Positions 1,779 through 61,523 are shown, counted from the stretch's first letter. The stretch: DNA of 64,000 bases from Kiritimatiellia bacterium (GCA_045627605.1 JAZQOA010000072.1:28005-92004), one strand, 5' to 3'. The notes: generated by a model not told the origin, from the sequence alone. Translations and numbers: made by a program.

Positions 1779-3512
1779 ATGTACTTGCTTGGCATAGACT
1801 TTGGCACGGGCGGATGCAAGGTGACGGCCGTCGATTACGAGGGCCGCCTTGTCGGCGACGCCTCCGTTGAATACGCGACCTATCACGAGCATCCCGGCTG
1901 GAGCGAGCAGGAGCCTTCCGACTGGTACGCGGCGATGTGCCAGGCGCTCGCCAAACTCGCCGCCAAGGGCGTCCGTCTCTCCGAGGTCGCCGCGCTCGCG
2001 CTCGACGGCTCCACGCACAACGCCGTGCTTCTCGGCCGCGACATGCGCCCCCTCCGCCGCACGATCATGTGGACTGACCAGCGCAGCACCGGGGAGTGCG
2101 CCTGGCTCCGCCGTGAAAAGGGCGATGAAATTTTCGCGACCTGCTACCAGATGCCTGCTCCGACCTGGACCTTGCCGCAGCTCATGTGGCTCAAGGCGCA
2201 CGAGCCCGAAGTCCTGGAACAGACGGCGCACGTCCTCTTTGTCAAGGACTACGTCCGCTTCCTCCTGACGGGGCATGTGGCGACGGACTACATCGAGGCG
2301 CAAGGCACGTTGATGTGCGACGTTAAATGGTTAAATAGCCCTACGGGCATTAAATGGTTAAATGGCCCTTCGGGCGTTAAAGAGTTAAATGGCCCTACGG
2401 GCGTTAAAGAGTTAAATGCGGCTTCGCCGTTGAATTTAAAGGCCTCTGGCCGATTTAACAATTTAACCTCTTATTGGGATTCCGATCTTGTCCAATTGTC
2501 AGGCTTGAAGATGTCCGCCATGCCGGAAATCATCAGGCCGACAGACGTTGTCGGCGGAGTGACTGCCGCAGCTTCTGCACAAACGGGGATTCCCGAAGGG
2601 ACGCCGGTTGTCTGCGGCACCAGCGACAGCGCCGTCGAGGACTATGGCGCGGGCGCCGTCGAGCCGGGCGACCTCATCATCAAGCTCGCCACGGCCGGCA
2701 ATGTCAACTCAATGACCGCCGCGCCGCATCCGCATCCAAAGACGCTCACCTACGCCCATGTCGTGCCGGGGATGTGGTACAGTGTGAGCGCCACCAACGC
2801 CGCGGCGCTTTGCCAGCGCTGGATGCGCGACACTTTTTTTGTTAAATGGTTAAATGGCCCTACGGGCATTAAAGAGTTAAATAGCCCTACGGGCATTAAA
2901 GAGTTAAATGCGGCTTCGCCGTTGAATTTAAAGGCCGCAGGCCGATTTAACAATTTAAAGCAATGCGATTTAACTTCTTACGAGGTGATGGATGCCGAAG
3001 CCGCGCAGTCGCCCATTGGCGCGGGAGGGGTGATGTTCCACCCGTACCTCCAGGGCGAGCGCTGCCCGTATTGGGATGCTAATCTCCGCGCCTCGTTTAC
3101 GGGCGTTTCGATTTCGTCGTCGCGCGGCGATTTTTGCCGTGCGCTTCTCGAAGGCGTGGCCTTCTCGTTGCGCGACTGCTACGGCACCCTTGAGGAGATG
3201 GGGCTTCCCGTCTCGCGCATTTTCCTGATTGGCGGAGGCGCGAAGTCCGCGCTCTGGAGCGAGATCGTCTGCAACGTCTTTGGCAAGCCCGTCGCAGTGC
3301 CCGCGCCTGCCGACGCCTCATTTGGCGCGGCGCTTCTGGCGGGCGTTGGCACGGGCGTCTTCGCAGACGCCAAGGCCGCCGTCGCCCAGTGCCTGCACAT
3401 CGCGCGGCGCATCGAGCCGGTGGCGGAGTCCGTCCGGGCCTATGACGCGCTCTACGCCCGCTACAAGGCCGTGCACGATGCCCTCGCGCCGGTTTATTCC
3501 GAAAGCAAATGA
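1779..3512 (+). CDS. xylB: FGGY-family carbohydrate kinase (xylulokinase-like) carrying two in-frame repeat-element insertions
   Basis: 577 aa. N-terminus MYLLGIDFGTGGCKV, then PGWSEQEPSDWY, TDQRS, GTSDS and LIGGGAKS motifs of FGGY kinases. It is about 90 aa longer than typical family members because of two AT-rich insertions. Confidence 0.75.
   Translation: MYLLGIDFGTGGCKVTAVDYEGRLVGDASVEYATYHEHPGWSEQEPSDWYAAMCQALAKLAAKGVRLSEVAALALDGSTHNAVLLGRDMRPLRRTIMWTDQRSTGECAWLRREKGDEIFATCYQMPAPTWTLPQLMWLKAHEPEVLEQTAHVLFVKDYVRFLLTGHVATDYIEAQGTLMCDVKWLNSPTGIKWLNGPSGVKELNGPTGVKELNAASPLNLKASGRFNNLTSYWDSDLVQLSGLKMSAMPEIIRPTDVVGGVTAAASAQTGIPEGTPVVCGTSDSAVEDYGAGAVEPGDLIIKLATAGNVNSMTAAPHPHPKTLTYAHVVPGMWYSVSATNAAALCQRWMRDTFFVKWLNGPTGIKELNSPTGIKELNAASPLNLKAAGRFNNLKQCDLTSYEVMDAEAAQSPIGAGGVMFHPYLQGERCPYWDANLRASFTGVSISSSRGDFCRALLEGVAFSLRDCYGTLEEMGLPVSRIFLIGGGAKSALWSEIVCNVFGKPVAVPAPADASFGAALLAGVGTGVFADAKAAVAQCLHIARRIEPVAESVRAYDALYARYKAVHDALAPVYSESK
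2322..2474 (+). mobile_element. MITE-like (ORF-less) derivative A of the 1256-1774 element family, in frame inside the kinase gene
   Basis: Left end GTTAAATGGTTAAAT (2322-2336). Right end ATTTAACAATTTAAC (2453-2467) pairs with it at 14/15 positions as an inverted repeat. The interior is five roughly 23-27-nt units, each a TTAAA-type block plus an 11-nt GC mini-hairpin (GCCCTACGGGC and similar). Translated as VKWLNSPTG-IKWLNGPSG-VKELNGPTG... Boundaries are +/-10 nt. Confidence 0.7.
2841..2981 (+). mobile_element. MITE-like (ORF-less) derivative B of the same family, in frame inside the kinase gene
   Basis: Same left end GTTAAATGGTTAAAT (2841-2855) and same unit order as copy A, with one fewer GCCC hairpin unit. 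Right end ATTTAACAATTTAAA...ATTTAAC (2945-2974). Same orientation and codon phase as copy A. Confidence 0.7.
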
Positions 3513-3565
3513 CACACGCCGGTTCTGCCTGGGCGGCGCCGGAGCCAACTTCAAGGAGAAATGAG

Positions 3566-4957
3566 ATGAAATTCGCGGTCATGCTTGCCAACCGGGGCTT
3601 TTTCCCCGGGGAACTGATAGCCGGGGCTCGGGAAGACCTCCGCAAGGCGCTTGCCGCCTGTGGACACGAGGCGCTTTTCATGGAAGGCGCGGGGACGCGC
3701 TACGACGCCGTCGAGACGATGGAGGAGGGGCGCAAGTTCGCCGACTTTCTCGCCGCCCGCAAGGGCCAGTACGATGGCGTCATCCTTTCGCAGCCCAACT
3801 TCGGCGATGAAAACGGTGCTTTCGTGGCGCTCCGCGACGCCGGCGTGCCGATCCTCGTCCAGGCCTACCCCGACGAGGCGGGGCTCATGGACTTCGCCCA
3901 CCGCCGCGACGCGCTTTGCGGCAAGCTTGCCATGTGCAACGTGCTGCGCCAGGCCGGGATCAGGCACTCGCTTACGCGTCGCTTCTGCGTCAAGCCGGAC
4001 TCCGCCGACTTCGCCGAGGACTTGCGCCTCTTCGCCGCCACCTGCCGGGTGGCGAACGGCATGCGCCGCGTCAACGTCGGCGCAATTGGCGCGCGCACAA
4101 CGGCTTTCAAGACGGTGCGCTTCGACGAGGTCGCCTTTATGGGCGCCGGCATCAACGTCGAGACCATCGACCTCTCGCTCGTCTTCAAGCTCATGGACGA
4201 AGCCGATCCCGCCGCCGTTGCCGCCATGGGGAAACGCCATGCCGACTACGCGGATTTCGGCACGTGGCCGGAGGAGAAGGCCGAAAACCTCGCCCGCCTC
4301 GGCGTGGCGCTCGACATTGTCCGCGACCGCTTCGGTCTTGACGCCATGGCCATCCGATGCTGGGACGAGCTCCAGCTCCGCTACGGCATCGCCCCGTGCC
4401 TGGCGATGAGCATCCTCAACCAGGACGGCCTACCCGCCTCATGCGAGATGGATGTCGACAATGCGGTCATGATGCGCGCGATCAATCTTGCCTCCGGGGC
4501 TCCCGTCGCGGTTTTCGACGTCAACAACAACTTTGGCGACGCCGCAGACCGCTGCATCATGTTCCATTGTTCAGCGATGCCCGCCGGCATGATGGTCGGC
4601 AAGCCATCCGTCGGTGAACACGCCATGTTCAGGAAGGCTTACGGCGCCGGTTCCGGCGTCGGCATCCTCAACGCCCCCGTCGCGAAGTCGCCCCTTACCG
4701 TTGGCAGCCTCAAGACGGAGAACGGCAAGGTCTGCGCCTTCGTCACGGAAGGCGAAATCACAGACGACAAGATCGAGGAGGCCTTTTTCGGCACGGGCTT
4801 CGTCTTCCGCAAGGACGACGGAGATTGCGAGGCCATGCTCCGCTATATGGCGAGGAACGGCTACCGCCACCACGTTTCCTTTGCCGCCGGCAAGTGGGCG
4901 GCGGCCATCGCGGAAGCCTTCGGCACCTACCTCGGCTACGCTGTCGACAGAATTTAG
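3566..4957 (+). CDS. L-fucose/L-arabinose isomerase family protein
   Basis: 463 aa from the ATG at 3566, with AAGGAG at 3553-3558. The pattern QPNFGDENG...RRDALCGKLAMCNVLRQ resembles the FucI/AraA-family N-terminal and central region. The track start at 3509 is upstream of the SD. Confidence 0.7.
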   Translation: MKFAVMLANRGFFPGELIAGAREDLRKALAACGHEALFMEGAGTRYDAVETMEEGRKFADFLAARKGQYDGVILSQPNFGDENGAFVALRDAGVPILVQAYPDEAGLMDFAHRRDALCGKLAMCNVLRQAGIRHSLTRRFCVKPDSADFAEDLRLFAATCRVANGMRRVNVGAIGARTTAFKTVRFDEVAFMGAGINVETIDLSLVFKLMDEADPAAVAAMGKRHADYADFGTWPEEKAENLARLGVALDIVRDRFGLDAMAIRCWDELQLRYGIAPCLAMSILNQDGLPASCEMDVDNAVMMRAINLASGAPVAVFDVNNNFGDAADRCIMFHCSAMPAGMMVGKPSVGEHAMFRKAYGAGSGVGILNAPVAKSPLTVGSLKTENGKVCAFVTEGEITDDKIEEAFFGTGFVFRKDDGDCEAMLRYMARNGYRHHVSFAAGKWAAAIAEAFGTYLGYAVDRI

Positions 4958-4992
4958 ACGAGCCCGTCTTTTCGCGGAATAGTTATTGACCC

Positions 4993-6843
4993 ATGCAAGA
5001 TTTCATGTATTCGATCGTCGGCGTGCTTGCGCTTGTCATCCACGTCATCGTCAATCCGTCGCTGTTCAGGAGAAGCGGCGCGAACGGCAGGAAGTCCGGC
5101 GCGTATTCCTTCCTGATGCTCGCCATCTTCGCCTACTATGTCACGGACGCCTTCTGGGGGCTTTTCGCCGGGCTCAACAACATCCCGCTCCTCTTTGTCG
5201 ACACGACGATCTACTACGTCGCCATGGCCTCGGCCCTGGCCTGCTGGTCAAGCTACATCATCGAATACCTCGAGCTTGATAGTTTCACCAGCAAGGCGGT
5301 CAAGTACGTCGCCTGGACCTTCTTCTACGCCGAGATCACGGCGCTGGCGGTCAACTTCTTCTACCCCTGCTTCTTCTGGTTCGACGAAAACGACGCCTAC
5401 CAGGCGGGCGCCATCCGCCACGCGGCCCTCTGGATCCAGGTGGTGCTGTTCTTCTTCACCGTCCTCGTCACCGGCCAGAAGGCCCTGCACGTCAAGGGAA
5501 TCGTCCGGTCGCGGCACCTGGCCATCTTCTTCTTCAGCACCGTGATGATGCTGGCCAACTTCTTCCAGGCGCTCTACCCGCTCCTGCCGGTTTACGCGAT
5601 GGGCTGCCTGATTGGCTGCTGCATCCTCCACGTCTACGTCGTCGAGGACGAGCGCGAGGAGTACCGGAAGATCATCGCCGAGGAAAAGAACAGCGCGGAG
5701 GCGGCGAACCGGGCGAAGACGGCCTTCCTCTTCAGCATGTCGCACGACATCCGCACGCCGATGAACGCCATCCTCGGCTACGTGGCCATGGCCAGGAAAA
5801 AGTCCGCCGACCCCGTCGTCACCGACTACCTGAAGAAGGTCGACATCGCGGGAAACCAGCTTCTCGCCCTGGTCAACCAGGTCCTTGAAATGTCGCGCAT
5901 TGAGTCCGGGAGCATCGTCCTCCAGGAGCAGAAGATCAACGTCGAGGAAGGTGCGGAAGTCGTCCGCGCCGTGTATAGGGCGCAGGCAAGGGCCAAGGGA
6001 ATTTCGCTCGACGTCGAACTCCGCGGCGTGACCCACAAGCACCTGATTGGCGATGCCGACTGCATTTCCCGAATCACAAACAACCTGGTCGGAAACGCAA
6101 TCAAGTACACCCGCGAAGGCGGTTCCATCTGCTCCTGCGTGGAGGAGGAGCCCTGCGAAAAGCCCGGGTTCGTCATCTCGCGGTTGACGGTGGAGGACAC
6201 CGGCATTGGAATCAGCGAGGAATACCTCCCGCATATCTTCGAGGAGTTCTCGCGGGAAGATACGTCGACGGTCAGCCATATCCAGGGCTCGGGCCTGGGC
6301 ATGTCCATCGTCAAAAGGCTCGTGGACTTGATGGGCGGCACGATCGAGGTCACGTCAAAGCTCGGCGCGGGGTCGAAGTTCGTCGTGCGGGTTCCGCTGA
6401 AGATCGACACGGAATTTAAGGAGGAGGCCGCGGGCGAAGCCGCGCTGCAGGACGTCTCCCTTAAGGGAATGAAGATCCTCCTGGTCGAGGACAACGAGAT
6501 GAACCGCGAGATCGCGATGGACATCCTCGGCGACACCGGCGCGGAAATCGACGTGGCGGAAGACGGCGTGGTCGCCGTTGAAAAAGTGGCGAATTCCGCG
6601 CCGGGACGGTACGACGTGATTCTGATGGACGTCCAGATGCCGCGCATGGACGGCTACGAGGCCACCCGGCGGATTCGCGCCCTGGCGGACAAGGAGCGGG
6701 CCTCGGTCAAAATCTTCGCAATGACCGCGAACGCCTTTGCCGAAGACAAGCAGAACGCGCTGGACGCCGGAATGGACGGCCATTTGGCAAAGCCAATCGA
6801 CGTCCCGAAGTTGCTGGCCACCCTGTCGGGCTTGAAGAAGTAA
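4993..6843 (+). CDS. hybrid sensor histidine kinase (multi-TM N-terminus, HisKA, HATPase_c, receiver)
   Basis: 616 aa. Hydrophobic N-terminal third, H-box FSMSHDIRTPMNAILGY, G-boxes (DTGIGI, GSGLGMSIV) and C-terminal REC (ILLVEDNEMN...MDVQMPRMDG...AKP). Confidence 0.9.
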   Translation: MQDFMYSIVGVLALVIHVIVNPSLFRRSGANGRKSGAYSFLMLAIFAYYVTDAFWGLFAGLNNIPLLFVDTTIYYVAMASALACWSSYIIEYLELDSFTSKAVKYVAWTFFYAEITALAVNFFYPCFFWFDENDAYQAGAIRHAALWIQVVLFFFTVLVTGQKALHVKGIVRSRHLAIFFFSTVMMLANFFQALYPLLPVYAMGCLIGCCILHVYVVEDEREEYRKIIAEEKNSAEAANRAKTAFLFSMSHDIRTPMNAILGYVAMARKKSADPVVTDYLKKVDIAGNQLLALVNQVLEMSRIESGSIVLQEQKINVEEGAEVVRAVYRAQARAKGISLDVELRGVTHKHLIGDADCISRITNNLVGNAIKYTREGGSICSCVEEEPCEKPGFVISRLTVEDTGIGISEEYLPHIFEEFSREDTSTVSHIQGSGLGMSIVKRLVDLMGGTIEVTSKLGAGSKFVVRVPLKIDTEFKEEAAGEAALQDVSLKGMKILLVEDNEMNREIAMDILGDTGAEIDVAEDGVVAVEKVANSAPGRYDVILMDVQMPRMDGYEATRRIRALADKERASVKIFAMTANAFAEDKQNALDAGMDGHLAKPIDVPKLLATLSGLKK

Positions 6844-6851
6844 TCGGCGGA

Positions 6852-6917
6852 CTCGCGCTCTACGCCCGCTGCAAGGCCGTGCACGACGCCCTCGCACTGG
6901 TCTGTTCCGTCTTTTAG
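6852..6917 (+). pseudogene. orphan 3'-end fragment of a xylulokinase-like gene
   Basis: 6855-6895 matches 3447-3487 (the end of the intact kinase gene) at 39/41 nt by hand alignment, then 10/14, and ends at its own stop TAG (6915-6917). Reads ALYARCKAVHDALALVCSVF* versus ALYARYKAVHDALAPVYSESK*. Confidence 0.7.
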
Positions 6918-8056
6918 AGGCTTAACAGGAACTCAGTCACAGGCACAGCCGTGACATTCTCGGTGAGTTTCATTGCGCGTTCGCCCCGGTAAAGCAAGGT
7001 CAGTTCCGCTTCTGGGTAATCCTGATGAAAAGCCTCAAGGCCGGAGGCATCCGAGCGGTCGGCGCGTGTGGCGTTTTTGACCTCGATTGCGCGGAAGACA
7101 TTTTCCCCGTAGATGACGAAATCGACTTCCACGCCGCTTTTCGTTCGCCAGAAATAAAGTTGATTGGGTTCGCTCAGGTAATCATTCCACGCCCTGATTT
7201 GCTGATAGACCAGACCTTCAAGGCAGGCGCCCTCGATTTCCGTTGCCCGGTCAAGGGGGCCATGCGGGCGCAGGGCGCGGAAAACACCGGCGTCGAAGAA
7301 GTAGATTTTGTCATGGCCGATGAGCTGGCGTTTGGCCCGTTTGGAGAAAACGGGAAGGCGTGAGACAATCAGCATTTCCTCGAGGATTTCAAAGTAGGTG
7401 TCGACCGTTGATCGTTTGACTCCCGCTTCACGTGCGATTTCACTGGCTGACAGGACGCTCCCGTGCGAGAAACTGGCAATTTCCAGAAAGCGGAAAAATG
7501 AATCGACTTTTCGGATGACGCCTTCCGTGATGAGTTCTTCCTCAATGTAAAGGTCAAGATAGGTCTTCAGGATGTTCTCGCTTGAACCACTTTTCGGGAA
7601 ACGCACCAAGGGGAGCATGCCATATCGAAGTGCGTCTTCAAGGCAAAATGCCTCGCCGAGTTCCCTCGCGAGGAACGGGTGGCACATCCGCTTCGCCGCC
7701 CGACCGCCCAGAAGATCTGCATTCGCATTTCGCTTCAACTTGCGCGCGCTTGAACCCGTCATGATGAATCTGTACCCGTTTTCATTGTCCATCAGCTGAT
7801 GGACGACATCCAGAACTTCCGGCGCTCTTTGGATTTCATCGATGACGACAGTCCGCTTATTCGGTTTTGCATGAATGTAGTTTTTCAAGCGTTCCGGATA
7901 GGCGCGGAGTTCCCGTCGTGTCGCGGGATCAAGCAGGGAGATGATATGGGCTTTGGGGAAGTGTTCCTCAAGCCAGGTGCTCTTTCCCGTTCCTCGGGGA
8001 CCAAAGAGAAAGTAGCTTCCATCAATGTCGGGTAAGACTCTTTTTAAGCGTTTCAT
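6914..8056 (-). CDS. AAA+ ATPase, COG1373/DUF4143 family
   Basis: 380 aa. Walker A GPRGTGKST, Walker B VVIDEIQ, C-terminal region typical of DUF4143 proteins. Visibly lower GC than the surroundings. Confidence 0.8.
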   Translation of the reverse strand: MKRLKRVLPDIDGSYFLFGPRGTGKSTWLEEHFPKAHIISLLDPATRRELRAYPERLKNYIHAKPNKRTVVIDEIQRAPEVLDVVHQLMDNENGYRFIMTGSSARKLKRNANADLLGGRAAKRMCHPFLARELGEAFCLEDALRYGMLPLVRFPKSGSSENILKTYLDLYIEEELITEGVIRKVDSFFRFLEIASFSHGSVLSASEIAREAGVKRSTVDTYFEILEEMLIVSRLPVFSKRAKRQLIGHDKIYFFDAGVFRALRPHGPLDRATEIEGACLEGLVYQQIRAWNDYLSEPNQLYFWRTKSGVEVDFVIYGENVFRAIEVKNATRADRSDASGLEAFHQDYPEAELTLLYRGERAMKLTENVTAVPVTEFLLSL

Positions 8057-8074
8057 AGGTTTGGGGTTGCAGAC

Positions 8075-8103: not shown

Positions 8104-8104
8104 C

Positions 8105-8908: not shown

Positions 8909-9251
8909 CGCATACCTCCTTTTTTGTTGTTTCGTCGAACGGGCCCCTCCCGTTTGACGCCATCAATTATGGACTATTTCATTGGGAAATTTCGTTGGAT
9001 TTGCAACATCTCGAAAATTCTTGAAGGAGAGGGGGCAGGCCCCTTTGCATCGAAGTCGCAAAACGTCTCCGTGAGTTGGAAAATGGATATGGGTTGCCAC
9101 TTTCGGCAGTGCAAAAAGGCAATCGGCTACCGGAGCTTGGTCGGCAACATGGAAATTCACGGAGACTGTGATCCAGGACCGCCAAAATGTGCTGCAAAAG
9201 TTTTACTTAACTTTCATTAAGTTAACCGTCGTTAAGTTAACCGAGGTTTGT

Positions 9252-9647
9252 TTAGTGGCAGTGGTGGCCGCAGTGGCTGCAGCTGCCGCCGCAGGAATGG
9301 CCTTCGTCGTGCCGGCACGTGGCGGACGCCGTTGCCGCGAGTTTGCCGTCGATGAATTGCGCGACGGCGTCGTCGGCCTTGCCTTCGACTCCCGCGAGGA
9401 CCTTGATGCGGGCCGCCGCGAGCATGCCGAGCGCCCCGGGGCCGATGCCGCCGCAGATGACGGTGTCGACCTCGTTCTGGATGAGCCAGATGGCGAGAAG
9501 TTCGTGGCCTTCGCTGGCGGCGTCCGCGACTTCGCTGTCCGTGACCTTGCCGTCCGCGACGGTGTAGAGCTTGAAGAGTTCCGTCTTGCCGAAGTGTTGG
9601 AAGATTTCGCCGTCGGGCGAGTAGGGGATGGCGATTTTGCTGGTCAT
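9252..9647 (-). CDS. NifB/NifX-family (dinitrogenase FeMo-cofactor-binding domain) protein with Cys/His-rich tail
   Basis: 131 aa from the ATG at 9647, with GGAG upstream. HFG...F, VICGGIGPGA pattern. C-terminus CRHDEGHSCGGSCSHCGHHCH. Its start overlaps the upstream stop (ATGA). Confidence 0.7.
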   Translation of the reverse strand: MTSKIAIPYSPDGEIFQHFGKTELFKLYTVADGKVTDSEVADAASEGHELLAIWLIQNEVDTVICGGIGPGALGMLAAARIKVLAGVEGKADDAVAQFIDGKLAATASATCRHDEGHSCGGSCSHCGHHCH

Positions 9648-13177: not shown

Positions 13178-13277
13178 GGTTGCCTTTGGGTTGGAGTTGT
13201 CGAAGACAATGCAAGTATAGCAAAATCCAGATGTTTTTTGTGGCGCATTTCGTAAAACCCCGTATACTTATTGGGTG

Positions 13278-16200
13278 ATGAAAATCAATTTCAATTTTTC
13301 GCAGCCGAACTGGGATGGGCTTGTCGCCGCCGTGCGCATGGGCGACAGGCGCGCCTTCGAGCGGCATTTCGGCGCCTGTCTCCCGATGGGCGGATTCCAG
13401 TCGCTTTGGTTCGGGGCGAAGTCCGGCAAGGCCTACCTCCTCCAGCGCATCGCCGACGAAATCGCGCCTGCGGGCCGCGGGTTCCCTCCCGACTTGAAGT
13501 ACGAATACCGCCGCATGCTGGCCCCGTACAAGCTCTACCGCGAATTTGTCTCGGGGCGCGATGTCGCGGAAGCCCTTGCGCAGGTTGCGGAGGCTTTCAT
13601 CCAGGGCGTCACGCCCGCCGATTTCGACGCGGTGCTTATGGCGGGCGCCATCTGCGTCTTTGCCGGCGACGCCGAAAGGCTGGCGACTTTGTCCGATTTG
13701 CGCGGGGTGCGCGCCGGCATCGGCGCCTCCGACTTCAGGACCTACACCGATGTCTTCGCCGCCTACCGGCTGCTTCTTGAGCGGGGCCCGTCGCAAGGCG
13801 TGCTGTCCCGGCTCGATCTGCTGGGCGATTCCTTTGGCGGCGCCGCCAGCTTCCTGCCGCAGATGCGCGGGAAGTTCCCGCTGACGCATCTCCGCCTTCC
13901 CTGTTTCGAGCTTTACGCCGCCGTGTGCGCGGCGCTTTACAAGGACGCTCCGCTTCGGTGCCTTTCAGTCGGCGTGACGGTGGATTCGCTTCTCCATGCG
14001 CTTGACGATGTTCGCGGCACGGTCGATTGCGCCTTGCTGGCGGATGTTTCCCGTATCCTTGCGGCGGTGGGCGAGGACGGCGGATCCTTCGGCTCGGAGG
14101 CCGTCCCCCCCGGTGCTTTCACGCCGCCTCCCCTGGCGTCGTTCAACCGCCTGCTGATGGCGCATGTCGCCGGGGGCGAAGGGGTGCTCGGGGGCGACGC
14201 CCGGCCGCATGTCGAGGCGGCGCGCGCCCTGGTTGACGCCGGGCAGCTTGTGCTTGGCGCCACGGCGGCGGGGTTCGCCATGGGCTGGCCGTCGGTTTCC
14301 GAGAGTGCCGGCGCCGTGGTTGCCGCGGCGGCGCATTGGGGCGTGAAGCCGCTTTTCAAGATGGATCCCCGTCTCCCGGCATGGCAGCTCGCGCTCGACG
14401 AGCTTGGGAAGTTCATCGACGGCGCGGATGCCGCCCCCGCGGCGGTGCGCGACCCGTTCTTCTGGCTTCTTACCCTTTCAAGGGTTGGGGGGCCCGAGAC
14501 CTTCAAGGTCGTCGATCTCGGCATTTGGCGCCGGCGCGTCCTGAAGAGCGGCAAGCTCGGCAAGGGCAAGGTCCACTCCGTCGGCGAGGCGGAGCGCATG
14601 GTCGGCGAACTCGAGACGCTGCCGCAGGACGACGCGGTCTTCGCGGCGCTTTGGCAGCTTAGCGGCGAATTTGGCTTTCCGCGTGGCTTCCGGTCCGTCG
14701 GGAATCCCGGGAAATTCGCCTGCCTTTTGCGCAGTCTCGTCGGGCATCCGCGTGTCGCCGCGATGGTCGATGGCGAAGATTTCGAGGCGACGCCGATCGA
14801 ACTTTCGGCCTACGCGCCGAAGATCGAGACTTCGCGGACGCCCGAAGGCGAACTTGTGCTGGAGCTTCCGCGCGAATTGCGCGAACTCGGCTCCGAAGCC
14901 GGTTCGGGACGCGCCTTGCTGCGCCTGGGCCCCGGCAAATACGGGGCGCTTCTCTGCGGCGCCGAACTGCAACGTGCCGCCGAGATCATCTTGAAGCGCG
15001 GCTCGGGCGGGAAGGTGGTGATTCCCGGGGCGGCGGCCGAAGACGCCGCCAACCGCATCGCGCAGGCGGCCAAGACCATCCCGATGCATGGCGTCATCAC
15101 GGAAGACGGCGACCTCTCGAAACTCCCGCGCGTCGCGGCGAGCCCCCTGCCGCACCTGCGCCTTTCACTTGAGGACGACGACGCGCTGGAAATCGCCCTT
15201 CGCGTCGTCGTGGACGAAGGCACGGGCAAGGTCGTTTACGCGCCGGGCTTCGGTCCCGGCGAAGTCGTCGCGCGCCAGGCGGGCGAGGCCGTTGCCGTTG
15301 TCCGCGACAAGTCCGCCGAGGAAGCCGCGGCGAAGCCCGTCCGCGACCTGCTGGCGGAATGCCCCGGCGTGAAGGCCATGGGCGTCGACGACTGGCGGGC
15401 CGAGGGCCTGGCGGAGATTCTCGGCGCCCTCGACGGCCTCCGTTCGCTGGGCGATGCCGTGGCCCTCGACTGGCTCGACCCCGACCGCGTCCTCAAGGTG
15501 GCGTCCGTGAGCGGCGCCGCGCTCGATGCCAGGCCCAAGGGCGCGGGCCATTGGTTCGGCGTCTCCGGCAACTTCGACCTCGACAACGGCAAAGTGCTCT
15601 CCTTCGAGGAAATGCTGAAGTCCATGCCCGCCAAGGTCGGCGGCTACGTCCGGCTTTCGGACGGCGAATACGTGCGGGTTTCGCGGAAGTTGCGCGAGAG
15701 GCTCGAAATGCTCGGCGCCGCAGGCGACATGCGCGACGGCGAGCTCGACGTGCCCGTCGCGGCCTTGCCCGCGATTGACGGCGCCTTTGGCGGCGCGGCG
15801 GAAAATGACGGTGCCGCCGCTTTTGCCCTGCCCGAGGCGATGGAGCGCCGCGCCACGCAAATCCGCGACGAGCTGGCGCGTGACGTCGCCGTGCCGGAGG
15901 GGCTTGCCGCCGAGTTGCGCCCCTACCAGCGCGAGGGCTTCGTTTGGCTCGACCATCTTGCCGGGTGCGGCATCGGCGCATGCCTGGCGGACGACATGGG
16001 CCTTGGGAAGACGCTCGAAATCATCGCCGTGCTGCTGGCCCGCGCCGCCGATGGCGCCTCCCTGGTTGTCGCCCCGACCTCGGTCTGCGGAAACTGGGAG
16101 TCCGAGATTCGGCGTTTCGCGCCGGGGCTTGTCCCGAAGCCGGTCGGTGCGCGCGAATCCGCCGCCGAAGTCGTGAAGACCGCGGGACGTGGCGACGTCG

Positions 16201-17264
16201 TCATCGCCAGCTACGGCCTTGCCGTCACCAAGGGCGACATCCTCGCCTCGCGCCATTGGAACGGCGTCGTCCTCGACGAGGCCCAGGCCATCAAGAACGC
16301 CGCCACGAAACGCGCCAAGGGCGTCAAGAAACTCGCCGCCCAGTTCCGCGTGGCCGCGACGGGCACGCCGGTCGAGAACCGCCTCAGCGAATTCTGGAGC
16401 CTCTTCGACTTCCTCAACCCCGGGATGCTGCTCTCGCAGGAGAAGTTCGTCGCCCGCTACACGCAGGACGGCATGGCGACCGCCGGGCTCAAGAAACTCG
16501 TCTCGCCGTTGGTTTTGCGCCGCCTGAAAAAAGACGTCCTCAAGGATTTGCCCCCCAAGACCGAGGTGAACCTCTTCGTCGAGCTGGAGTCGACCGAGCG
16601 CGCCGCCTACGAGGCCTGCCGCCGCCAGGCGCTTGAAGCGGTTGAGCAGGCGAAGGAGGCCGGCAAGGCCGCCTCGGCGGGAATGCTCGTCCTCCGTGAA
16701 CTCACGCGGCTCCGGCGCTTCTGCTGCCACCCGTCGCTTGTCCTCCCCGAACTTGTCGCCTCCGCGAAACTCGACGCGCTCGCCGATCTCCTGGCCGACC
16801 TCCGCGAGGGCGATCACCGCGCACTTGTCTTCAGCCAGTACACCGACTATCTCGCCATCGTCGGCAACATGGTCGGCAAAAACGGCTGGTCCTACCAGTA
16901 TCTCGACGGCTCCACGCCGAGGGACGAGCGGCTTGAACGGGTGGAGCGCTTCCAGAAGGGCGAAGGCGACTTCTTCCTCATCAGCCTCAAGGCGGGCGGC
17001 TTCGGCCTCAACCTTACCGCCGCCAACTACGTGATTCTCCTCGACCCCTGGTGGAACCCCGCCGTGGAGAACCAGGCGGCGGACCGCGTCCACCGCATCG
17101 GGCAGACGGAGCCGGTGACGGTTTACCGACTCGTCGCGAAGGACACCATCGAGGAACGCGTCGTCGCCCTCCACGCCGACAAGCTCAAGATCGCGGACGA
17201 CCTTCTGGAAGGCGCCGGCAGCGCCGCGCTCACGCTGAACGAGATGATGGGGCTGTTCAGCTGA
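13278..17264 (+). CDS. SNF2-family helicase with an approximately 870-aa N-terminal extension of unknown function
   Basis: ATG at 13278; the track start at 13275 is GTG. Motifs LRPYQREGFVWL, DDMGLGKT, VLDEAQAIKN, TGTPVENRL, SLKAGGFGLNLT, WWNPAVENQAADRVHRIGQ. Confidence 0.9.
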   Translation: MKINFNFSQPNWDGLVAAVRMGDRRAFERHFGACLPMGGFQSLWFGAKSGKAYLLQRIADEIAPAGRGFPPDLKYEYRRMLAPYKLYREFVSGRDVAEALAQVAEAFIQGVTPADFDAVLMAGAICVFAGDAERLATLSDLRGVRAGIGASDFRTYTDVFAAYRLLLERGPSQGVLSRLDLLGDSFGGAASFLPQMRGKFPLTHLRLPCFELYAAVCAALYKDAPLRCLSVGVTVDSLLHALDDVRGTVDCALLADVSRILAAVGEDGGSFGSEAVPPGAFTPPPLASFNRLLMAHVAGGEGVLGGDARPHVEAARALVDAGQLVLGATAAGFAMGWPSVSESAGAVVAAAAHWGVKPLFKMDPRLPAWQLALDELGKFIDGADAAPAAVRDPFFWLLTLSRVGGPETFKVVDLGIWRRRVLKSGKLGKGKVHSVGEAERMVGELETLPQDDAVFAALWQLSGEFGFPRGFRSVGNPGKFACLLRSLVGHPRVAAMVDGEDFEATPIELSAYAPKIETSRTPEGELVLELPRELRELGSEAGSGRALLRLGPGKYGALLCGAELQRAAEIILKRGSGGKVVIPGAAAEDAANRIAQAAKTIPMHGVITEDGDLSKLPRVAASPLPHLRLSLEDDDALEIALRVVVDEGTGKVVYAPGFGPGEVVARQAGEAVAVVRDKSAEEAAAKPVRDLLAECPGVKAMGVDDWRAEGLAEILGALDGLRSLGDAVALDWLDPDRVLKVASVSGAALDARPKGAGHWFGVSGNFDLDNGKVLSFEEMLKSMPAKVGGYVRLSDGEYVRVSRKLRERLEMLGAAGDMRDGELDVPVAALPAIDGAFGGAAENDGAAAFALPEAMERRATQIRDELARDVAVPEGLAAELRPYQREGFVWLDHLAGCGIGACLADDMGLGKTLEIIAVLLARAADGASLVVAPTSVCGNWESEIRRFAPGLVPKPVGARESAAEVVKTAGRGDVVIASYGLAVTKGDILASRHWNGVVLDEAQAIKNAATKRAKGVKKLAAQFRVAATGTPVENRLSEFWSLFDFLNPGMLLSQEKFVARYTQDGMATAGLKKLVSPLVLRRLKKDVLKDLPPKTEVNLFVELESTERAAYEACRRQALEAVEQAKEAGKAASAGMLVLRELTRLRRFCCHPSLVLPELVASAKLDALADLLADLREGDHRALVFSQYTDYLAIVGNMVGKNGWSYQYLDGSTPRDERLERVERFQKGEGDFFLISLKAGGFGLNLTAANYVILLDPWWNPAVENQAADRVHRIGQTEPVTVYRLVAKDTIEERVVALHADKLKIADDLLEGAGSAALTLNEMMGLFS

Positions 17265-17357
17265 GAGTTGGCAGAGGGGCGCGCTCCCGCGTGACCGCCG
17301 CGCTGGGAGTGCGGCGGGGAGTGGTGCGGGGGCCATGTGTTTCCCCCGGCCGCGTCT

Positions 17358-17406
17358 GTTGCAATTTCCCGTTGCATTTTCCCGTTGCTTTTTTGTTGCT
17401 TTTATC
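17358..17406 (+). promoter_or_regulatory. four tandem GTTGC-headed 11-13-nt direct repeats upstream of the Hpt/kinase genes
   Basis: GTTGCAATTTCCC, GTTGCATTTTCCC, GTTGCTTTTTT, GTTGCTTTTATC, ending 28 nt before the ATG at 17434. Confidence 0.35.
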
Positions 17407-17433
17407 ATGTGTTTTTGATAGGATTCAATCATC

Positions 17434-17817
17434 ATGATTAAAGACTCTAGTCAAATTTTCAGCCGTCTTGCTGCCATGGGCTGCAACATCGAGGAGACGC
17501 TGGAAGACACTTACATGGGCAACGAGGCGCTTTACCTGAAGCAACTTGTGCGCCTGGCCGGCTCCGATACGCCGCAGAAGATGCTCGCGGCTGTCCGGGG
17601 CGGCGATGTCGCGGAGTGTTTCGAGGCGGCGCACGAGCTGAAGGGACTCTACGCGACGATGGGGCTTGAGCCCTTGTATCGCTCGTGTTGCGTTATCGTC
17701 GAGGCGACGCGCGGCGAGCAGGGCCGTCTCGACGGCGTGCTTGAAAAAGCCGAGGCGCTCGCGGCCAGCCACGAGGCGGTGCTGGGGGAGATCAGGGGAT
17801 TCGGTGCGCCCGCCTGA
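17434..17817 (+). CDS. Hpt (histidine phosphotransfer) domain protein
   Basis: 127 aa containing the Hpt signature AAHELKG. Confidence 0.75.
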   Translation: MIKDSSQIFSRLAAMGCNIEETLEDTYMGNEALYLKQLVRLAGSDTPQKMLAAVRGGDVAECFEAAHELKGLYATMGLEPLYRSCCVIVEATRGEQGRLDGVLEKAEALAASHEAVLGEIRGFGAPA

Positions 17818-17842
17818 CGGGCGGGGAGGGAAAGGTTTGGCT

Positions 17843-20380: not shown

Positions 20381-20384
20381 CGAG

Positions 20385-22835: not shown

Positions 22836-22845
22836 TTTGAGGCCT

Positions 22846-22907
22846 GAAGGCGACTTCCTTCTTGTCAGCCTCAAGGCGGGCGGCTTCGGTCTCAACCTTG
22901 CCGCCGC
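22846..22907 (+). pseudogene. orphan fragment of an SNF2-helicase paralogue (helicase-C motif region)
   Basis: 56/62 nt identical by hand alignment to 16962-17023 of the intact SNF2 gene. Encodes EGDFLLVSLKAGGFGLNLAAA versus EGDFFLISLKAGGFGLNLTAA. Starts 10 nt after the kinase stop. Confidence 0.65.
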
Positions 22908-22955
22908 GTCCTTCTGGGAAACGACGCATTGCAATATCCCGCCCGCGTCAGGGGA

Positions 22956-23015
22956 GGTTGTAGGTTGAAGGTTGTAGGTTGAAGGTTGGAGGTTGAAGGT
23001 TGAAGGTTGGAGGTG
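22956..23015. repeat. heptamer tandem array (GGTTGNA) x ~8.5
   Basis: GGTTGTA GGTTGAA GGTTGTA GGTTGAA GGTTGGA GGTTGAA GGTTGAA GGTTGGA GGTG. Confidence 0.9.
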
Positions 23016-23585
23016 CGAGTGGGGAGTAGGCATCGGTACCGCCGCGCAAAACATCGGTGCTTCTCGTCTCATGTCTCTCGTCTCATGTCTCACGCCCTCG
23101 CTCATCACATGAGGACACGAGACAAGAGACACGAGACGCAAAAGGTTCGCGCCCGGTGCCCCGCAAGAGCCAGTAGGCATCGGTACCGCCGCGCAAAACA
23201 TCGGTGCTTCTCGTCTCTTGTCTCATGTCTCACGCCCTCGCTCATCACATGAGGACACGAGACAAGAGACACGAGACGCGAAAGGTTCGCGCCCGGTGCC
23301 CCGCAAGAGCCGGTAGGCATCGGTACCGCCGCGCAAAACATCGGTGCTTCTCGTTTCTTGTCTCATGTCTCACGCCCTTGCTCATCACATGAGGACACGA
23401 GACAAGAGACACGAGACGCGAAAGGTTCCCGCCCGGTGCCCCGCAAGAGCCGGTAGGCATCGGTACCGCCGCGCAAAACATCGGTGCTTCTCGTCTCATG
23501 TCTCTCGTCTCTTGTCTCACGCCCTTGCTCATCACATGAGGACACGAGACAAGAGACACGAGACGCGAAAGGTTCGCGCCAGCTT
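23016..23585. repeat. four tandem copies of a ~140-bp unit, each with a long heptad-built hairpin
   Basis: The GTAGGCATCGGTACC landmark occurs at 23025, 23173, 23313 and 23453, giving periods of 148, 140 and 140. Units are near-identical. The example stem 23212-23231 / 23259-23278 pairs at 18/20 positions with a 27-nt loop. The last unit ends about 6 nt from the hemW stop. Confidence 0.9.
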
Positions 23586-24725
23586 TCACGCGAGCAGTTC
23601 CGCGATGGCGGCGTCCGCGACTTCGCGTCCGCGCCGCGTGAGCGCCCAGCGCCCGGGGCGGATTTCCTGCGTGATGCCGTGCGTGGCGAGACGCCTTAGC
23701 GTCGATTCCCATTCGGCGACGCGCACCGCGGCGGCGGGGTGGGTCTTGGCGAAGGCCGCGGGCGAAGCGCCTTCCGCCATGCGCAGCGCGTAGGCAAAGC
23801 GTTCCTCGGCGTCGTCCGCCGGCGAAAGCGTCTCGTCGTTCTCGGCGGGCGGAAGCGAGCCGGCGCCGAGCGCCGCCCGCCATTTCGCGACGTCGGGCGC
23901 GATGGTGCGGCGCGTTAGCCCAAGGCGCGAGGCCGCGGCGGGGCCGAGCCCCAGGTAGTCCTCTCCGCGCCAGCAGGCGAGGTTGTGGCGGCATTCGAAG
24001 CCGGGAAGCGCGTAGTTGGAGATTTCGTAGCGAACAAAACCGGCGGCGGCGAGGATGTCCTCCGTCCGCGCCAGAAGGTCCATTTGCGCGTCGTCCGCCA
24101 GGGGGGCGAGCCTGCCGGCGGCGATGTCGCGGCCCAACGCCGTTCCGGACTCGACAATCAGGCCGTAGACCGAGAGGTGGCGGGGGGCGAGCGCCAGCGC
24201 CTTTGCAAGCGTCTTTTCCCAGGCGGGGGCTTCGACACCGGGGTAGCCCGCGATGAGATCGAAGCCGACATTGCCGAAGCCGTGTGCGCGGGCGAGCGCA
24301 AGGGCGTCTGCCACGTCGCGCGCCGTGTGGCGGCGGCCCATGGCCTTGAGGACGGCGTCGTCAAGCGACTGCGCGCCGAAACTAAGGCGGTTGACGCCGA
24401 GGGCGCGGAGCGCGTCGAGAAGGGCGGGGGTCGTGATTTCCGGCGAGGGATTGAGCTCGACGGTCCATTCCGTCGCGCGGGAAATGTCAATGCCCGCGGC
24501 GGCGAGTTCCGCCACGGTTTCGCGGAGGCCGTCGGACCCGAGCAATCCGGGTGTGCCGCCGCCGAAATAGATGGTCCCGGGGGCGAGATGGCCGCCTGCG
24601 CGGAGTGCGCATTCGCGCCCGATGCGCCTTGGGAAGTCGCGGGCGCCCTCCAAGCCGGCAATGGAATAGAGTGCGCAGTAGCGGCACTTCGAGAGGCAGA
24701 AGGGGACGTGGAGGTAGAGGTTCAT
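23586..24725 (-). CDS. hemW: radical SAM family heme chaperone / oxygen-independent coproporphyrinogen oxidase-like (HemW/HemN family)
   Basis: 379 aa from the ATG at 24725. LYLHVPFCLSKCRYCALYS (CX3CX2C), YFGGGTP and a HemN C-terminal-like region. Confidence 0.8.
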   Translation of the reverse strand: MNLYLHVPFCLSKCRYCALYSIAGLEGARDFPRRIGRECALRAGGHLAPGTIYFGGGTPGLLGSDGLRETVAELAAAGIDISRATEWTVELNPSPEITTPALLDALRALGVNRLSFGAQSLDDAVLKAMGRRHTARDVADALALARAHGFGNVGFDLIAGYPGVEAPAWEKTLAKALALAPRHLSVYGLIVESGTALGRDIAAGRLAPLADDAQMDLLARTEDILAAAGFVRYEISNYALPGFECRHNLACWRGEDYLGLGPAAASRLGLTRRTIAPDVAKWRAALGAGSLPPAENDETLSPADDAEERFAYALRMAEGASPAAFAKTHPAAAVRVAEWESTLRRLATHGITQEIRPGRWALTRRGREVADAAIAELLA

Positions 24726-56105: not shown

Positions 56106-56288
56106 GTTGGCTGCCTTTTTCAAAATCCTACCATCGGGAACCGGGAATGTCAATCCAAAAAGAGCGCTGGAGAGGGAGGGGTTCTTGAAATTTTCCCTTG
56201 CGGGAAAAATGAATAAACACTAAAATAGTAGCAATGCTTTTCACTTGCCGGGGGGACCGGCTTTCACGCATTCAGGAGTAACACCAAC

Positions 56289-59906
<3,618 letters not shown>

Positions 59907-59930
59907 GTCCCTGGTGGCTTCTAGCAAAAA

Positions 59931-59962
59931 GGCGCGACGGCGAAAGCCGCCGCGCCTTTTTT
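59931..59962 (+). terminator. rho-independent terminator of nifJ
   Basis: GGCGCGACGGC-gaaa-GCCGCCGCGCC followed by TTTTTT. Confidence 0.85.
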
Positions 59963-59976
59963 AATTGCCGTAGCGA

Positions 59977-60005
59977 TTGCGAGCAGGCGTTAAAAATGAT
60001 ATACT
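59977..60005 (+). promoter_or_regulatory. candidate sigma70-like promoter of the second ATPase gene (TTGCGA-N17-TATACT)
   Basis: TTGCGA at 59977-59982, 17-nt spacer, TATACT at 60000-60005, about 40 nt upstream of the ATG at 60046. Confidence 0.35.
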
Positions 60006-60045
60006 ATACGGCAAAGTTGGTTAACAAAAAGAGTGAGTTTGCCGC

Positions 60046-61383
60046 ATGAAGGTTGTCAGAGAACGATATTTGAAGCAATTGCGCGAACGGATGCATAACG
60101 GTTTGGTGAAAATCATCACAGGCATTCGACGTTGCGGGAAGTCTTATCTTCTTGGGGTTCTTTTCAAGGAGTATCTTGAGTCCATCGGCGTCGATCAGGC
60201 GCACATCATCGAGGTTGCTCTTGACAAAGATGAATTTCGCGGAATTCGCGACGCGATTCGACTGGGCGAGTACATTCGTACGCGGATTGTGGATGACGGC
60301 AAGTGGACGTATGTCTTCGTGGATGAGGTACAGCTAGCGAAAAAGGTCTTGCCGGACGGTGTGGACATCAGCCGTTATGCGCCTGAAGACCGAGATGAGG
60401 CTTATGTCACTTTTTACGATGTCCTCAACGGCATCAGACAAATGAAGAATGTGGACGTGTATGTCACGGGATCGAATTCAAAAACACTTTCCAAGGACAT
60501 CGACACCAATTTCGCAGACCGTGGCTATCAGATTCGCATGCACCCATTTTCCTTTTCGGAATACTGCCAGGCACTTCAGCCGGAAGACAAGGCAGAGGCG
60601 TTCAGCCGCTATCTGACTTGGGGAGGGATGCCGCTGGCCGTGGCGGAGACAACGGATGACGGTCGGGCTCGCTACCTGAAAGGATTGTTTTCGGAAGTGT
60701 ATTTGAAGGATATCAAATTGCGGTATGAACTGAGAAATGACTTTGTCCTTGGAAAATTGATTGATGTGCTTTCCAGTGCCACGGGGAGTTTGACGAATCC
60801 GCACAAGCTGCGGGACATGCTTGAGTCAACGTTGAAGATCAAGGCGGGTGATCATACGATTGTCAATTACATCGAGTACCTCATAGACGCATTCCTGTTT
60901 TCGGAATCCAAGCGCTGGGACGTAAAGGGAAAGTCGTATTTCGACTATCCGGTTAAGTATTATGCCGAAGACACGGGGCTGCGAAACGCCCGGCTTGAAT
61001 TCCGCGATGTGGAACCGTCGCATTCGATGGAGAATGTCATTTACAACGAACTGGTTCGCAGGGGGTGTTCGGTGGATGTCGGGGTCGTTCAGATTTCCGG
61101 CAGGGGTGAAAATGGGAAACAGTTCCTGCGGCAGCACGAGATTGATTTTGTGGTAAATCGGGCGCCAGGAAAGATCTACATTCAGTCTGCATGGCGACTG
61201 CCTTCGGAAGAAAAGCTCCAGCAGGAACTTTTGCCCCTGCGCCGTAGCGGCGATTTCTTCAAGAAGATCATCGTATCGGAAGGGTATGCGCGGCCGATGC
61301 AAGATGAATTCGGCATCGTACACATCGGCGTGATTCCGTTTTTGCTTGACGAGTGTTTTCTGGAAGATGCCCTTTTGAAATGA
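60046..61383 (+). CDS. AAA+ ATPase, COG1373/DUF4143 family (second copy)
   Basis: 445 aa. Walker A GIRRCGKSY, Walker B VFVDEVQ and a DUF4143-like C-terminal half. Lower GC than the flanks. Confidence 0.8.
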   Translation: MKVVRERYLKQLRERMHNGLVKIITGIRRCGKSYLLGVLFKEYLESIGVDQAHIIEVALDKDEFRGIRDAIRLGEYIRTRIVDDGKWTYVFVDEVQLAKKVLPDGVDISRYAPEDRDEAYVTFYDVLNGIRQMKNVDVYVTGSNSKTLSKDIDTNFADRGYQIRMHPFSFSEYCQALQPEDKAEAFSRYLTWGGMPLAVAETTDDGRARYLKGLFSEVYLKDIKLRYELRNDFVLGKLIDVLSSATGSLTNPHKLRDMLESTLKIKAGDHTIVNYIEYLIDAFLFSESKRWDVKGKSYFDYPVKYYAEDTGLRNARLEFRDVEPSHSMENVIYNELVRRGCSVDVGVVQISGRGENGKQFLRQHEIDFVVNRAPGKIYIQSAWRLPSEEKLQQELLPLRRSGDFFKKIIVSEGYARPMQDEFGIVHIGVIPFLLDECFLEDALLK

Positions 61384-61412
61384 GTTTTCGACAGCCTACT
61401 CATAGCAAATAG

Positions 61413-61466
61413 GAGGAAGGCTTCAAGGAGAACTACGCTCTCCTCAAGAAGCTCTCCGAGATGTAA
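61413..61466 (+). pseudogene. orphan duplicate of the nifJ 3' end
   Basis: 52/54 nt identical to 59853-59906, including the stop. Reads ...GFKENYALLKKLSEM*. Confidence 0.8.
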
Positions 61467-61489
61467 TCGGAAGACGCTTCAGGCGAAAC

Positions 61490-61523
61490 GGCGCGACGGC
61501 GAAAGCCGCCGCGCCGTTTTTTA
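61490..61523 (+). terminator. second copy of the nifJ terminator hairpin
   Basis: The 26-nt hairpin is identical to 59931-59956 and is followed by GTTTTTTA. Confidence 0.75.

Follow-up and report, generated by a model that had tools for sequence, protein, structure and literature searches.

The stretch of DNA analysed here (the window) comprises 64,000 nucleotides (nt) of one strand from a Kiritimatiellia bacterium (GCA_045627605.1, JAZQOA010000072.1:28005-92004), and at three places in it a resident gene on the plus strand is followed by a block of accessory genes and then by a short, diverged, orphan fragment of that same gene. The resident genes encode an FGGY sugar kinase of the xylulokinase-like type (case 1), an SNF2-family helicase (case 2) and the pyruvate:ferredoxin oxidoreductase NifJ (case 3). 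An earlier reading of the sequence by itself (the original prediction) had pointed out these arrangements; all three repeat pairs are recovered by BLAST and local alignment within the window, and the assignments of the FGGY kinase, isomerase, hybrid kinase, SNF2, Hpt and DUF4143 genes are upheld by Pfam. In case 1, positions 3446-3501 match 6854-6909 over 56 nt (50/56 identical, 89%, with 40/42 in the first 42 nt; window E 1.6e-14); case 2 pairs 16962-17023 with 22846-22907 over 62 nt (56/62 identical, 90%; window E 8e-17), and case 3 pairs 59853-59963 with 61413-61523 over 111 nt (87%; window E 8e-24). The repeats are direct throughout, and in a search of the window the sole strong match of each fragment is its partner. 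Fragments 1 and 2 start after exactly 10 nt beyond a hybrid-kinase stop codon, where a distance of about 10 nt had been claimed. Placement at gene ends, likewise proposed, holds for cases 1 and 3; the case 2 fragment comes from the interior of SNF2, 241 nt before the stop. The same structures recur in independent assemblies of other strains (six for case 1, two for case 3 and one for case 2), which excludes an assembly artefact. Synonymous and non-synonymous differences across the coding repeats stand at roughly 10 versus 11, values that duplication with drift and import fit equally well, and a motif shared by the repeat ends or the insert ends was looked for and none was seen. A diversity-generating retroelement (DGR) as the source of the three pairs was rejected, the differences not lying at adenines and a reverse transcriptase being absent.

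The FGGY kinase gene of case 1 (1779-3512, plus strand; Pfam FGGY_N/FGGY_C), whose last codons are the ones duplicated, holds the upstream repeat copy in its tail (3446-3501, plus strand, placed by local alignment), ending 11 nt before the stop. The 3352-nt block that follows (3502-6853, plus strand), delineated from Pfam, G+C content at third codon positions (GC3) and gene calls in other strains, contains the last three FGGY codons with the stop, then a gene resembling fucose isomerase (about 3566-4957) and one for a hybrid histidine kinase (4993-6843), with a GC3 of 0.83-0.87 that resembles native genes. Two details of the original prediction needed correcting: the isomerase, which begins near 3566 and has 463 amino acids (aa), does not overlap the FGGY stop, and the homology of the downstream fragment stops at 6909, not 6917. 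That downstream copy (6854-6909, plus strand; local alignment) is an orphan FGGY tail with six differences, three of them non-conservative (Y>C, P>L and Y>C, at positions that orthologues conserve), and it looks like a decaying relic. Next to it lies a second DUF4143 gene that had been missing from the earlier list of features: an AAA_14 + DUF4143 ATPase-nuclease (6914-8056, minus strand; Pfam; PADLOC PDLC04790, E 1e-58; GC3 0.61), a defence candidate of the PDC-S01 type that is convergent with FGGY.

Strains with and without the blocks were found by exact-sequence look-up of small flanking proteins; they are represented by metagenome contigs (L numbers below) and are about 99% identical. For case 1, contig L026 supplies an empty site in which the FGGY tail runs straight into position 6910 onward and the convergent DUF4143 gene, the isomerase-kinase block being missing. 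Its single repeat copy, to which the upstream window copy is identical, consists of the left part of copy 1 and the right part of copy 2, with the switch after position 51 of 56. The block is present in six other strains, and the downstream copy is the same in seven block-carrying strains. Where the site is empty, the FGGY frame ends ...SVF* at the TAG of 6915-6917, overlapping the stop (6914-6916) of the convergent DUF4143 gene, and the earlier DUF4143 insertion therefore itself reshaped the FGGY C-terminus. FGGY orthologues 61-64% identical adjoin KduI in five other species, and in none of the other species compared does an isomerase or kinase stand behind KduI-FGGY; since these species keep the pair without the two genes, block 1 is a lineage-specific addition. 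The closest isomerase relatives (68-70% identical) lie in a different gene context, and genus relatives have the order isomerase then FGGY, with a kinase only 25% identical.

Several other variants lie along this region. In L021, L023 and L024 the hybrid kinase is about 10% diverged at window 5200-6760 with both flanks less than 0.5% different, which is an allelic replacement tract over the sensor and kinase core. The FGGY kinase holds AT-rich repeats of a 27-nt unit, in frame, at 2322-2466 and 2842-2958, and its length varies among strains (577, 600 and 618 aa). Around 177 extra bases stand at window 8235 between the DUF4143 and lipocalin genes in L018, L019, L022 and L026, and at 9020-9252 some strains (L018, L022) exchange 232 nt for a 2.7-kb islet of an MjaI-like restriction enzyme and an N6/N4 methyltransferase, without flanking repeats.

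Case 3 begins with nifJ (56289-59906, plus strand; open reading frame (ORF) with GC3 0.94, the name being taken from the original prediction), whose relatives have 73-88% DNA identity. The upstream copy found by local alignment (59853-59963, plus strand) spans the final 54 nt of nifJ together with 24 nt of linker and the terminator hairpin and T-run; the 1449-nt insert (59964-61412, plus strand) holds one AAA_14 + DUF4143 gene (60046-61383; PDC-S01; Pfam; PADLOC PDLC04787, E 2e-102) of GC3 0.60; and the downstream copy (61413-61523, plus strand) is an orphan nifJ tail and terminator. The empty site, on contig L011, has nifJ (identical over 956 nt), a single copy of tail and terminator, and then the window sequence from 61524 onward. 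Against this allele the downstream window copy differs only at 61418, and the upstream copy is the same at positions 1-26 and differs at 13 places in 27-111, so the single copy of L011 joins the left part of copy 1 to the right part of copy 2, with the switch between positions 6 and 27 of 111. Differences between the two window copies are spread unevenly: the terminator stem has none (0/26), the coding part 2/54 and the linker about 11/24. Because divergence is concentrated in the linker, with the coding part and the stem far less changed, the comparison favours a copy that evolved as a working nifJ end in another lineage, that is, an imported copy.

The case 3 insert is also present in L054 and L055. 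The two insert-bearing strains differ by 0.21% in the insert versus 0.77% in nifJ and 1.72% in the right flank, and the nifJ tail is identical between the window and the empty-site strain; presence of the islet thus does not track the relatedness of its flanks, and judging from these sequences the islet moves, or is lost, within the population. An exact-protein look-up of the case 3 DUF4143 protein gave no match.

Next to cinA, at window 62454-62500, some strains (L011, L054) hold a 4-kb islet that replaces 47 nt and has no flanking repeats; it carries an ATPase_2 gene of 477 aa with ORFs of 96, 502 and 87 aa, and it occurs independently of the DUF4143 insert 1 kb away. Elsewhere, L056:3050-5050 and L057:290-2280 share a 1.95-kb unit that consists of a hairpin terminator, a DUF4143 gene with 89-90% identity to that of the window, a palindrome resembling an operator and 17 nt from the start of the next ORF. 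Its neighbour genes are entirely different in the two places, and the cassette therefore moved along with pieces of its flanks. A 77-nt direct repeat around the DUF4143 relative in L056 was considered as a target duplication and rejected, being a palindromic operator common to two stress promoters.

We screened the whole 2.9-Mb, 158-contig genome by self-BLAST for repeats of 35-300 nt, at least 80% identical and 1-10 kb apart. Direct pairs outnumber inverted ones by 55 to 4 (p = 2e-12), and about eight direct pairs, the three in the window among them, enclose a block that stands alone at a gene 3' end or terminator, so that the recurrence for which the original prediction had proposed a screen is beyond chance. 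The further blocks (genome contigs are given C numbers) are those on C56 (repeat 130 nt, 94%; DUF4143 and RelB/YafQ genes), C59 (94 nt, 99%; an AlbA_2 ATPase), C38 (53 nt, 96%, at the pnp terminator; an ATPase_2 gene), C148 (87 nt, 95%; three genes, one of them ATPase_2) and C62 (40 nt, 90%); insert sizes run from 1.4 to 5.8 kb. Many of the direct pairs have ordinary causes: tandem paralogues, repeat proteins, signal peptides or promoter regions (C46, C119, C86, C98), RHS tips (C114) and one DGR (C135). It had been allowed beforehand that the three cases might have unrelated explanations, such as decayed tandem paralogues; causes of that kind do account for other pairs in the genome, but cases 1 and 3 are repeat-bounded units of gain and loss.

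Two of the loci found in this way lie outside the window. The DGR (C135:466-3800) has its template repeat at 466-601 and its variable repeat at 1370-1505, the latter at the 3' end of a gene with Ser/Thr-kinase and FGE-sulfatase domains; 15 of 20 differences fall at template adenines, and the two repeats enclose a 201-aa ORF with a YMDD motif. At C114:9286-11622 an orphan core fragment whose tip differs comes after an RHS/YD-repeat gene, forming a 256-nt direct repeat of 89% identity. An RHS gene with an orphan core fragment is a well-known displaced-tip arrangement.

The C59 block is polymorphic as well, being empty in L071 and L072 and filled in L069 and L070. All three testable blocks (cases 1, 3 and C59) are thus presence/absence polymorphisms bounded exactly by the repeats, and each empty-site junction is new sequence that is not derivable from shared 31-mers. 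The original prediction had asked for a comparison of close strains to catch polymorphic blocks, and for cases 1 and 3 that comparison yields exact empty sites. The repeats delimit units of presence and absence in the population. They would also allow precise loss of a block, while ordinary recombination in the flanks would spread it between strains.

Case 2 stands apart in several respects. The SNF2 gene (13275-17264, plus strand; Pfam SNF2-rel_dom and Helicase_C) contains the upstream copy (16962-17023, plus strand; BLAST and local alignment) in its helicase motif V. The 5822-nt interval between the copies (17024-22845, plus strand), resolved by Pfam, gene calls in L040 and matches to repetitive extragenic palindromic (REP)-like sequence, comprises the SNF2 3' end, a REP-like piece (17274-17317), an Hpt gene (17434-17817) and two hybrid kinase genes (17843-20380 and 20385-22835). 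The orphan fragment (22846-22907, plus strand) keeps the lineage-specific GGFG motif and has the derived changes F>L, I>V and T>A, the last of which falls in the invariant motif V. Because it shares the GGFG variant of this lineage, the fragment can be traced to the resident SNF2, and it looks like a decaying relic of the lineage's own gene; the sole SNF2 paralogue in the genome is 41% identical. The right edge of the fragment coincides with the start of a dispersed REP-like element (22897-22957, plus strand), whose first 11 nt, CTTGCCGCCGC, overlap the end of the fragment as a microhomology, CTT[A/G]CCGCCGC; at least eight REP-like copies on other contigs start CTTACCGCCGC/GTCCTTCCGGGAAACG. 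This coincidence of edge and element start over 11 nt makes the junction a product of illegitimate recombination. No Hpt or kinase gene lies within 1.5 kb downstream of SNF2 orthologues in relatives (54-61% identical), and block 2 is for that reason also a lineage-specific addition.

The only other strain found for this region, on contig L040, has the same arrangement with the fragment unchanged. A pattern scan of Joint Genome Institute (JGI) metagenomes for both SNF2 copies gave no match, nor did exact-protein look-ups of the Hpt and of a HemN-like gene. An "empty" form of case 2 would equal a truncated SNF2. The best reading of the case is a history of two steps, for which there are two versions: either 16962-22845 would have been duplicated in tandem and most of the second copy then lost, or SNF2 would have been truncated and subsequently mended by homology-guided repair. 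Its history probably differs from that of cases 1 and 3.

The REP-like family is found in the window at 22897-23660 and 17274-17317, with copies on C128, C80, C137, C141, C136, C52 and C139. Its pattern is CTTACCGCCGC GTCCTTCCGGGAAACGACGC...TTGCAA.ATCTCGCCCG, and about four tandem hairpin units of 140 nt lie alongside.

Orphan ATPase-nuclease genes, which are defence candidates, make up most of the cargo. Five of the roughly eight blocks carry an orphan ATPase gene (DUF4143, ATPase_2 or AlbA_2) and a sixth, case 1, adjoins one; the cargo genes of case 3, C56, C38 and C148, together with the case 1 neighbour, match PDC-S01/PDC-S27 models strongly (PADLOC, Pfam). Within this genome 5 of 27 orphan ATPase genes are bracketed by repeats versus 1 of 198 control genes (p = 1e-4). 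Across many phyla, with direct repeats sought within 500 nt of the gene, 14 of 69 DUF4143 genes are bracketed, the controls being 1 of 117 for neighbouring segments and 1 of 69 for inverted repeats (p = 4e-6). The 14 repeats are 26-157 nt long (one reaches 346 nt when aligned beyond the 500-nt window), derive from the target and often represent the neighbour's 3' end or terminator. Rates in Kiritimatiellia are 2/23 for ATPase_2, 3/26 for AlbA_2, 2/25 for Fic and, with repeats sought within 500 nt, 0/25 for methyltransferases, and DUF4143 bracketing is not significantly above that of other accessory families (p = 0.10). Nuclease-free cargo (isomerase and kinase; Fic) leaves the same footprint. 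Since the cargo of case 1 is nuclease-free and the DUF4143 rate is not significantly higher than that of other families, the insertion process is probably independent of its cargo.

Together, these results lead us to read cases 1 and 3, along with at least five other loci of the genome, as insertions with long target duplication, and we give this reading a probability of roughly 60%. Under this reading a block comes to lie between two direct copies, 40-130 nt long, of its landing sequence, which is the last codons of the upstream gene and/or its terminator, and the duplication would be made by host break repair or recombination and not by an enzyme that the block encodes. Two routes can be envisaged. 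Two illegitimate joints may land staggered on the target, or one homologous and one illegitimate joint may form after DNA uptake, as in homology-facilitated illegitimate recombination, in which case the repeat copies would differ from birth, as case 3 suggests. Such recombination, with one homologous and one microhomology end and occurring during natural transformation, is said to have been described in 2002 by de Vries & Wackernagel and by Prudhomme et al. Selection would account for the 3'-end position, in that an insertion into a gene tail should survive only with the tail duplicated and not deleted. The cargo would be whatever is gained, mostly single-gene defence candidates and also a sugar isomerase with a hybrid kinase. 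The same strains hold islets that have no duplication and replace 47 and 232 nt instead, and such repeat-free replacements are expected if either joint can lie to the left of the other.

Pfam analysis of all block genes reveals no integrase, transposase or other mobility gene, as had been claimed; the genome has only three tyrosine recombinases, all away from the blocks (on C41, C58 and C101), and it encodes ComEC, a component of the DNA-uptake machinery (PF03772, on C21, E 7e-49). Ku was not found in this 85%-complete genome. The proposal of an unrecognised site-specific system fares badly: repeat lengths vary from 40 to 130 nt in the genome, insert ends are not conserved, cargo orientation varies, and the seven repeat pairs here together with 14 in other genomes are of unrelated sequence, 26-346 nt long, with no common attachment (att) core. 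With neither an integrase, conserved ends, a shared motif nor a fixed repeat length in view, the sequences do not support a site-specific system. A DNA transposon was rejected, the duplications being long and variable, the ends neither conserved nor inverted, and a transposase absent. Of the two further parts of the original prediction, the common mechanism that inserts blocks without a recombinase stands as a recurrent architecture of insertion and loss and not as one uniform process, case 2 probably having a different history; restoration of the resident gene by an imported copy is borne out by the diverged linker of case 3 only, the downstream copies of cases 1 and 2 looking like decaying relics.

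A number of observations weigh against insertion with long target duplication. Any empty site must combine the left of copy 1 with the right of copy 2, and it separates neither ancestral absence from later precise excision nor insertion by duplication from single-crossover integration. Because single-crossover integration and precise excision both yield the same mosaic, the empty sites leave the direction of change and the enzyme unfixed. The uneven differences of case 3 have a p of about 0.002 under a model of duplication followed by drift, which does not predict them. No donor with the order nifJ-DUF4143 in another lineage was found among DUF4143 relatives, nor one with the order FGGY-isomerase-kinase among isomerase relatives, where sampling was limited. 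In case 2 no polymorphism was found, with just one other strain to compare, and 22 of the 27 orphan ATPase genes in the genome have no flanking repeat. The molecular steps of insertion, moreover, are inferred and not observed.

These points bear on what else could have produced the repeat pairs. If all three were scars of local tandem duplications whose second copy was mostly deleted, no import would be needed; case 2, with an internal fragment from the lineage's own SNF2 (GGFG) and a deletion-type microhomology junction, fits well, and blocks 1 and 2 are of native composition. The inserts of case 3, C56, C59 and C38 are compositionally foreign, however, and the two DUF4143 genes of the window have a GC3 of 0.60-0.61 versus 0.83-0.94 in their neighbours. 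Deletion would also have to recreate the exact empty-site junction every time, and block 1 is absent behind FGGY in other species, with empty sites in close strains; as an account of all three pairs we therefore regard local duplication as unlikely. Chance similarity, or motifs common to paralogues, is scarcely credible: many local pairs in this genome are indeed tandem paralogues, signal peptides, promoter or operator motifs, RHS tips or a DGR, but the window E-values are 1e-14 to 1e-24, the second copies are non-coding with similarity that stops sharply, the sole SNF2 paralogue is too distant at 41% identity, and repeat-bounded empty sites exist, which refutes the idea for cases 1 and 3.

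Single-crossover integration of a circular element that bears a diverged 3' end of the target as an attP mimic, with the recombinase acting in trans as in e14/phage 21 or in integrase-less islands that a related element mobilises, draws on the structure of case 3. There the left of copy 1 is native and its right diverged, the right of copy 2 is native and its left has a single diverged base, and the coding part and terminator stem are kept and the linker is not, as in an element-borne mimic that is kept functional; the three tyrosine recombinases elsewhere in the genome could serve. Excision explains the mosaic equally well, though, and both targets and repeats change from block to block, no core being common to them. 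The smallest blocks amount to one ORF and 33 nt, the repeats derive from the target and not from an element across phyla, and DUF4143 cargo is already largely seen at numerous sites that are unrelated and have each been duplicated locally. Four or more att specificities for tiny integrase-less islets in one genome are improbable, and the explanation as a whole appears rather unlikely. We are still more doubtful that the cargo moves itself, with the PD-(D/E)XK nuclease and AAA ATPase of DUF4143/ATPase_2 proteins making staggered breaks in the way that Kobayashi's group suggested for restriction enzymes. In its favour are the five of about eight blocks that carry such a gene and the sixth (case 1) that adjoins one, the classification of DUF4143 and DUF234 as PD-(D/E)XK nucleases (PMC3424549), the bracketing of 20% of DUF4143 genes in many phyla, and the very large size of the family, whose members are often on very short contigs. 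It is equally doubtful that these genes are recombinase-free selfish elements that cut at terminators or gene tails and make of the landing site a hot spot capturing other DNA, such as the case 1 block. That block has no nuclease, Fic (2/25) and AlbA_2 (3/26) are not significantly less often bracketed (p = 0.10), and most DUF4143 copies have no repeat and lie in either orientation at varying distances from the repeats where these exist; DUF4143-type genes may simply be the commonest recently gained cargo.

Most bacterial gene gain is credited to phages, plasmids, transposons and integrase-driven islands. One route that needs no recombinase is insertion with long target duplication, described since 2000 around restriction-modification genes only, and the filled and empty sites reported here, in strains of a single population that are about 99% identical, show naturally the states before and after. 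The cargo, which includes ordinary metabolic and sensor genes beside defence candidates, indicates a host-driven process that does not depend on what is inserted. If the process is general, its footprint would be a cheap marker of recent gene gain in uncultured genomes and would help to explain how single-gene defence systems spread without mobile-element genes.

Several known systems resemble parts of what is seen here. At icd of E. coli, prophage e14 and phage 21 leave an intact gene, the element and then a displaced, diverged 3' fragment, the element supplying the replacement tail, as is general for integrative elements at gene 3' ends. The likeness lies in this order of gene, element and fragment and in a replacement tail of the kind that case 3 suggests; those elements, in contrast, are many kb long, carry an integrase gene and rely on a single fixed att core, whereas the present blocks have no integrase, use a separate repeat at each site and can consist of a single gene. 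A diverged, functional replacement tail fits case 3, but the second copies of cases 1 and 2 are degenerate, and excision would yield the same mosaic. For homology-facilitated illegitimate recombination the usual outcome described is deletion of recipient DNA and not duplication. It shares with the present loci the absence of a cargo recombinase and would account for copies that differ from birth (case 3) and for the small replacements seen elsewhere, and it differs in that the outcome here is duplication and that, with limited sampling, the gene order expected of a donor was found in no lineage; searching the literature for duplications that arise in this process turned up nothing useful. The PADLOC families PDC-S01 (COG1373; AAA_14 + DUF4143) and PDC-S27 (ATPase_2) correspond to the cargo, with full-length hidden Markov model matches for 60046-61383 and 6914-8056; they label the cargo, for which a defence role is a candidate only, and are silent on the insertion process.

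The closest parallel is insertion with long target duplication as described by Furuta, Abe & Kobayashi (2010, PMC2853133): inserts of less than 20 kb without mobility genes, between direct repeats of more than 30 bp and variable length, the repeat being single in the empty-site genome and often overlapping the 3' end of a flanking gene. Those insertions occur mostly in naturally competent species and their mechanism is unresolved (PMC2853133); the same footprint was reported for restriction-modification gene complexes by Nobusato et al. (2000, as cited in PMC2853133). In the present genome the repeats are 56, 62 and 111 nt in the window and 40-130 nt at C38, C56, C59, C62 and C148, the inserts are below 20 kb and free of mobility genes, and a single repeat stands at the empty sites of case 3 (L011), case 1 (L026) and C59 (L071, L072). 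The cargo differs from the restriction-modification genes of that survey, consisting of DUF4143, ATPase_2 and AlbA_2 ATPases, the RelB/YafQ toxin-antitoxin, an isomerase with a kinase and possibly an Hpt with two kinases; we take the restriction to such genes to be a limit of the survey and not a feature of the mechanism. Double-strand breaks made by the cargo were proposed by Kobayashi's group as the driver (PMC2853133), an idea against which the nuclease-free cargo argues. The host, an uncultured Kiritimatiellia bacterium of gut or rumen, as the named sources of its homologues also indicate, and the filled and empty pairs at population level are further differences from the 2010 cases.

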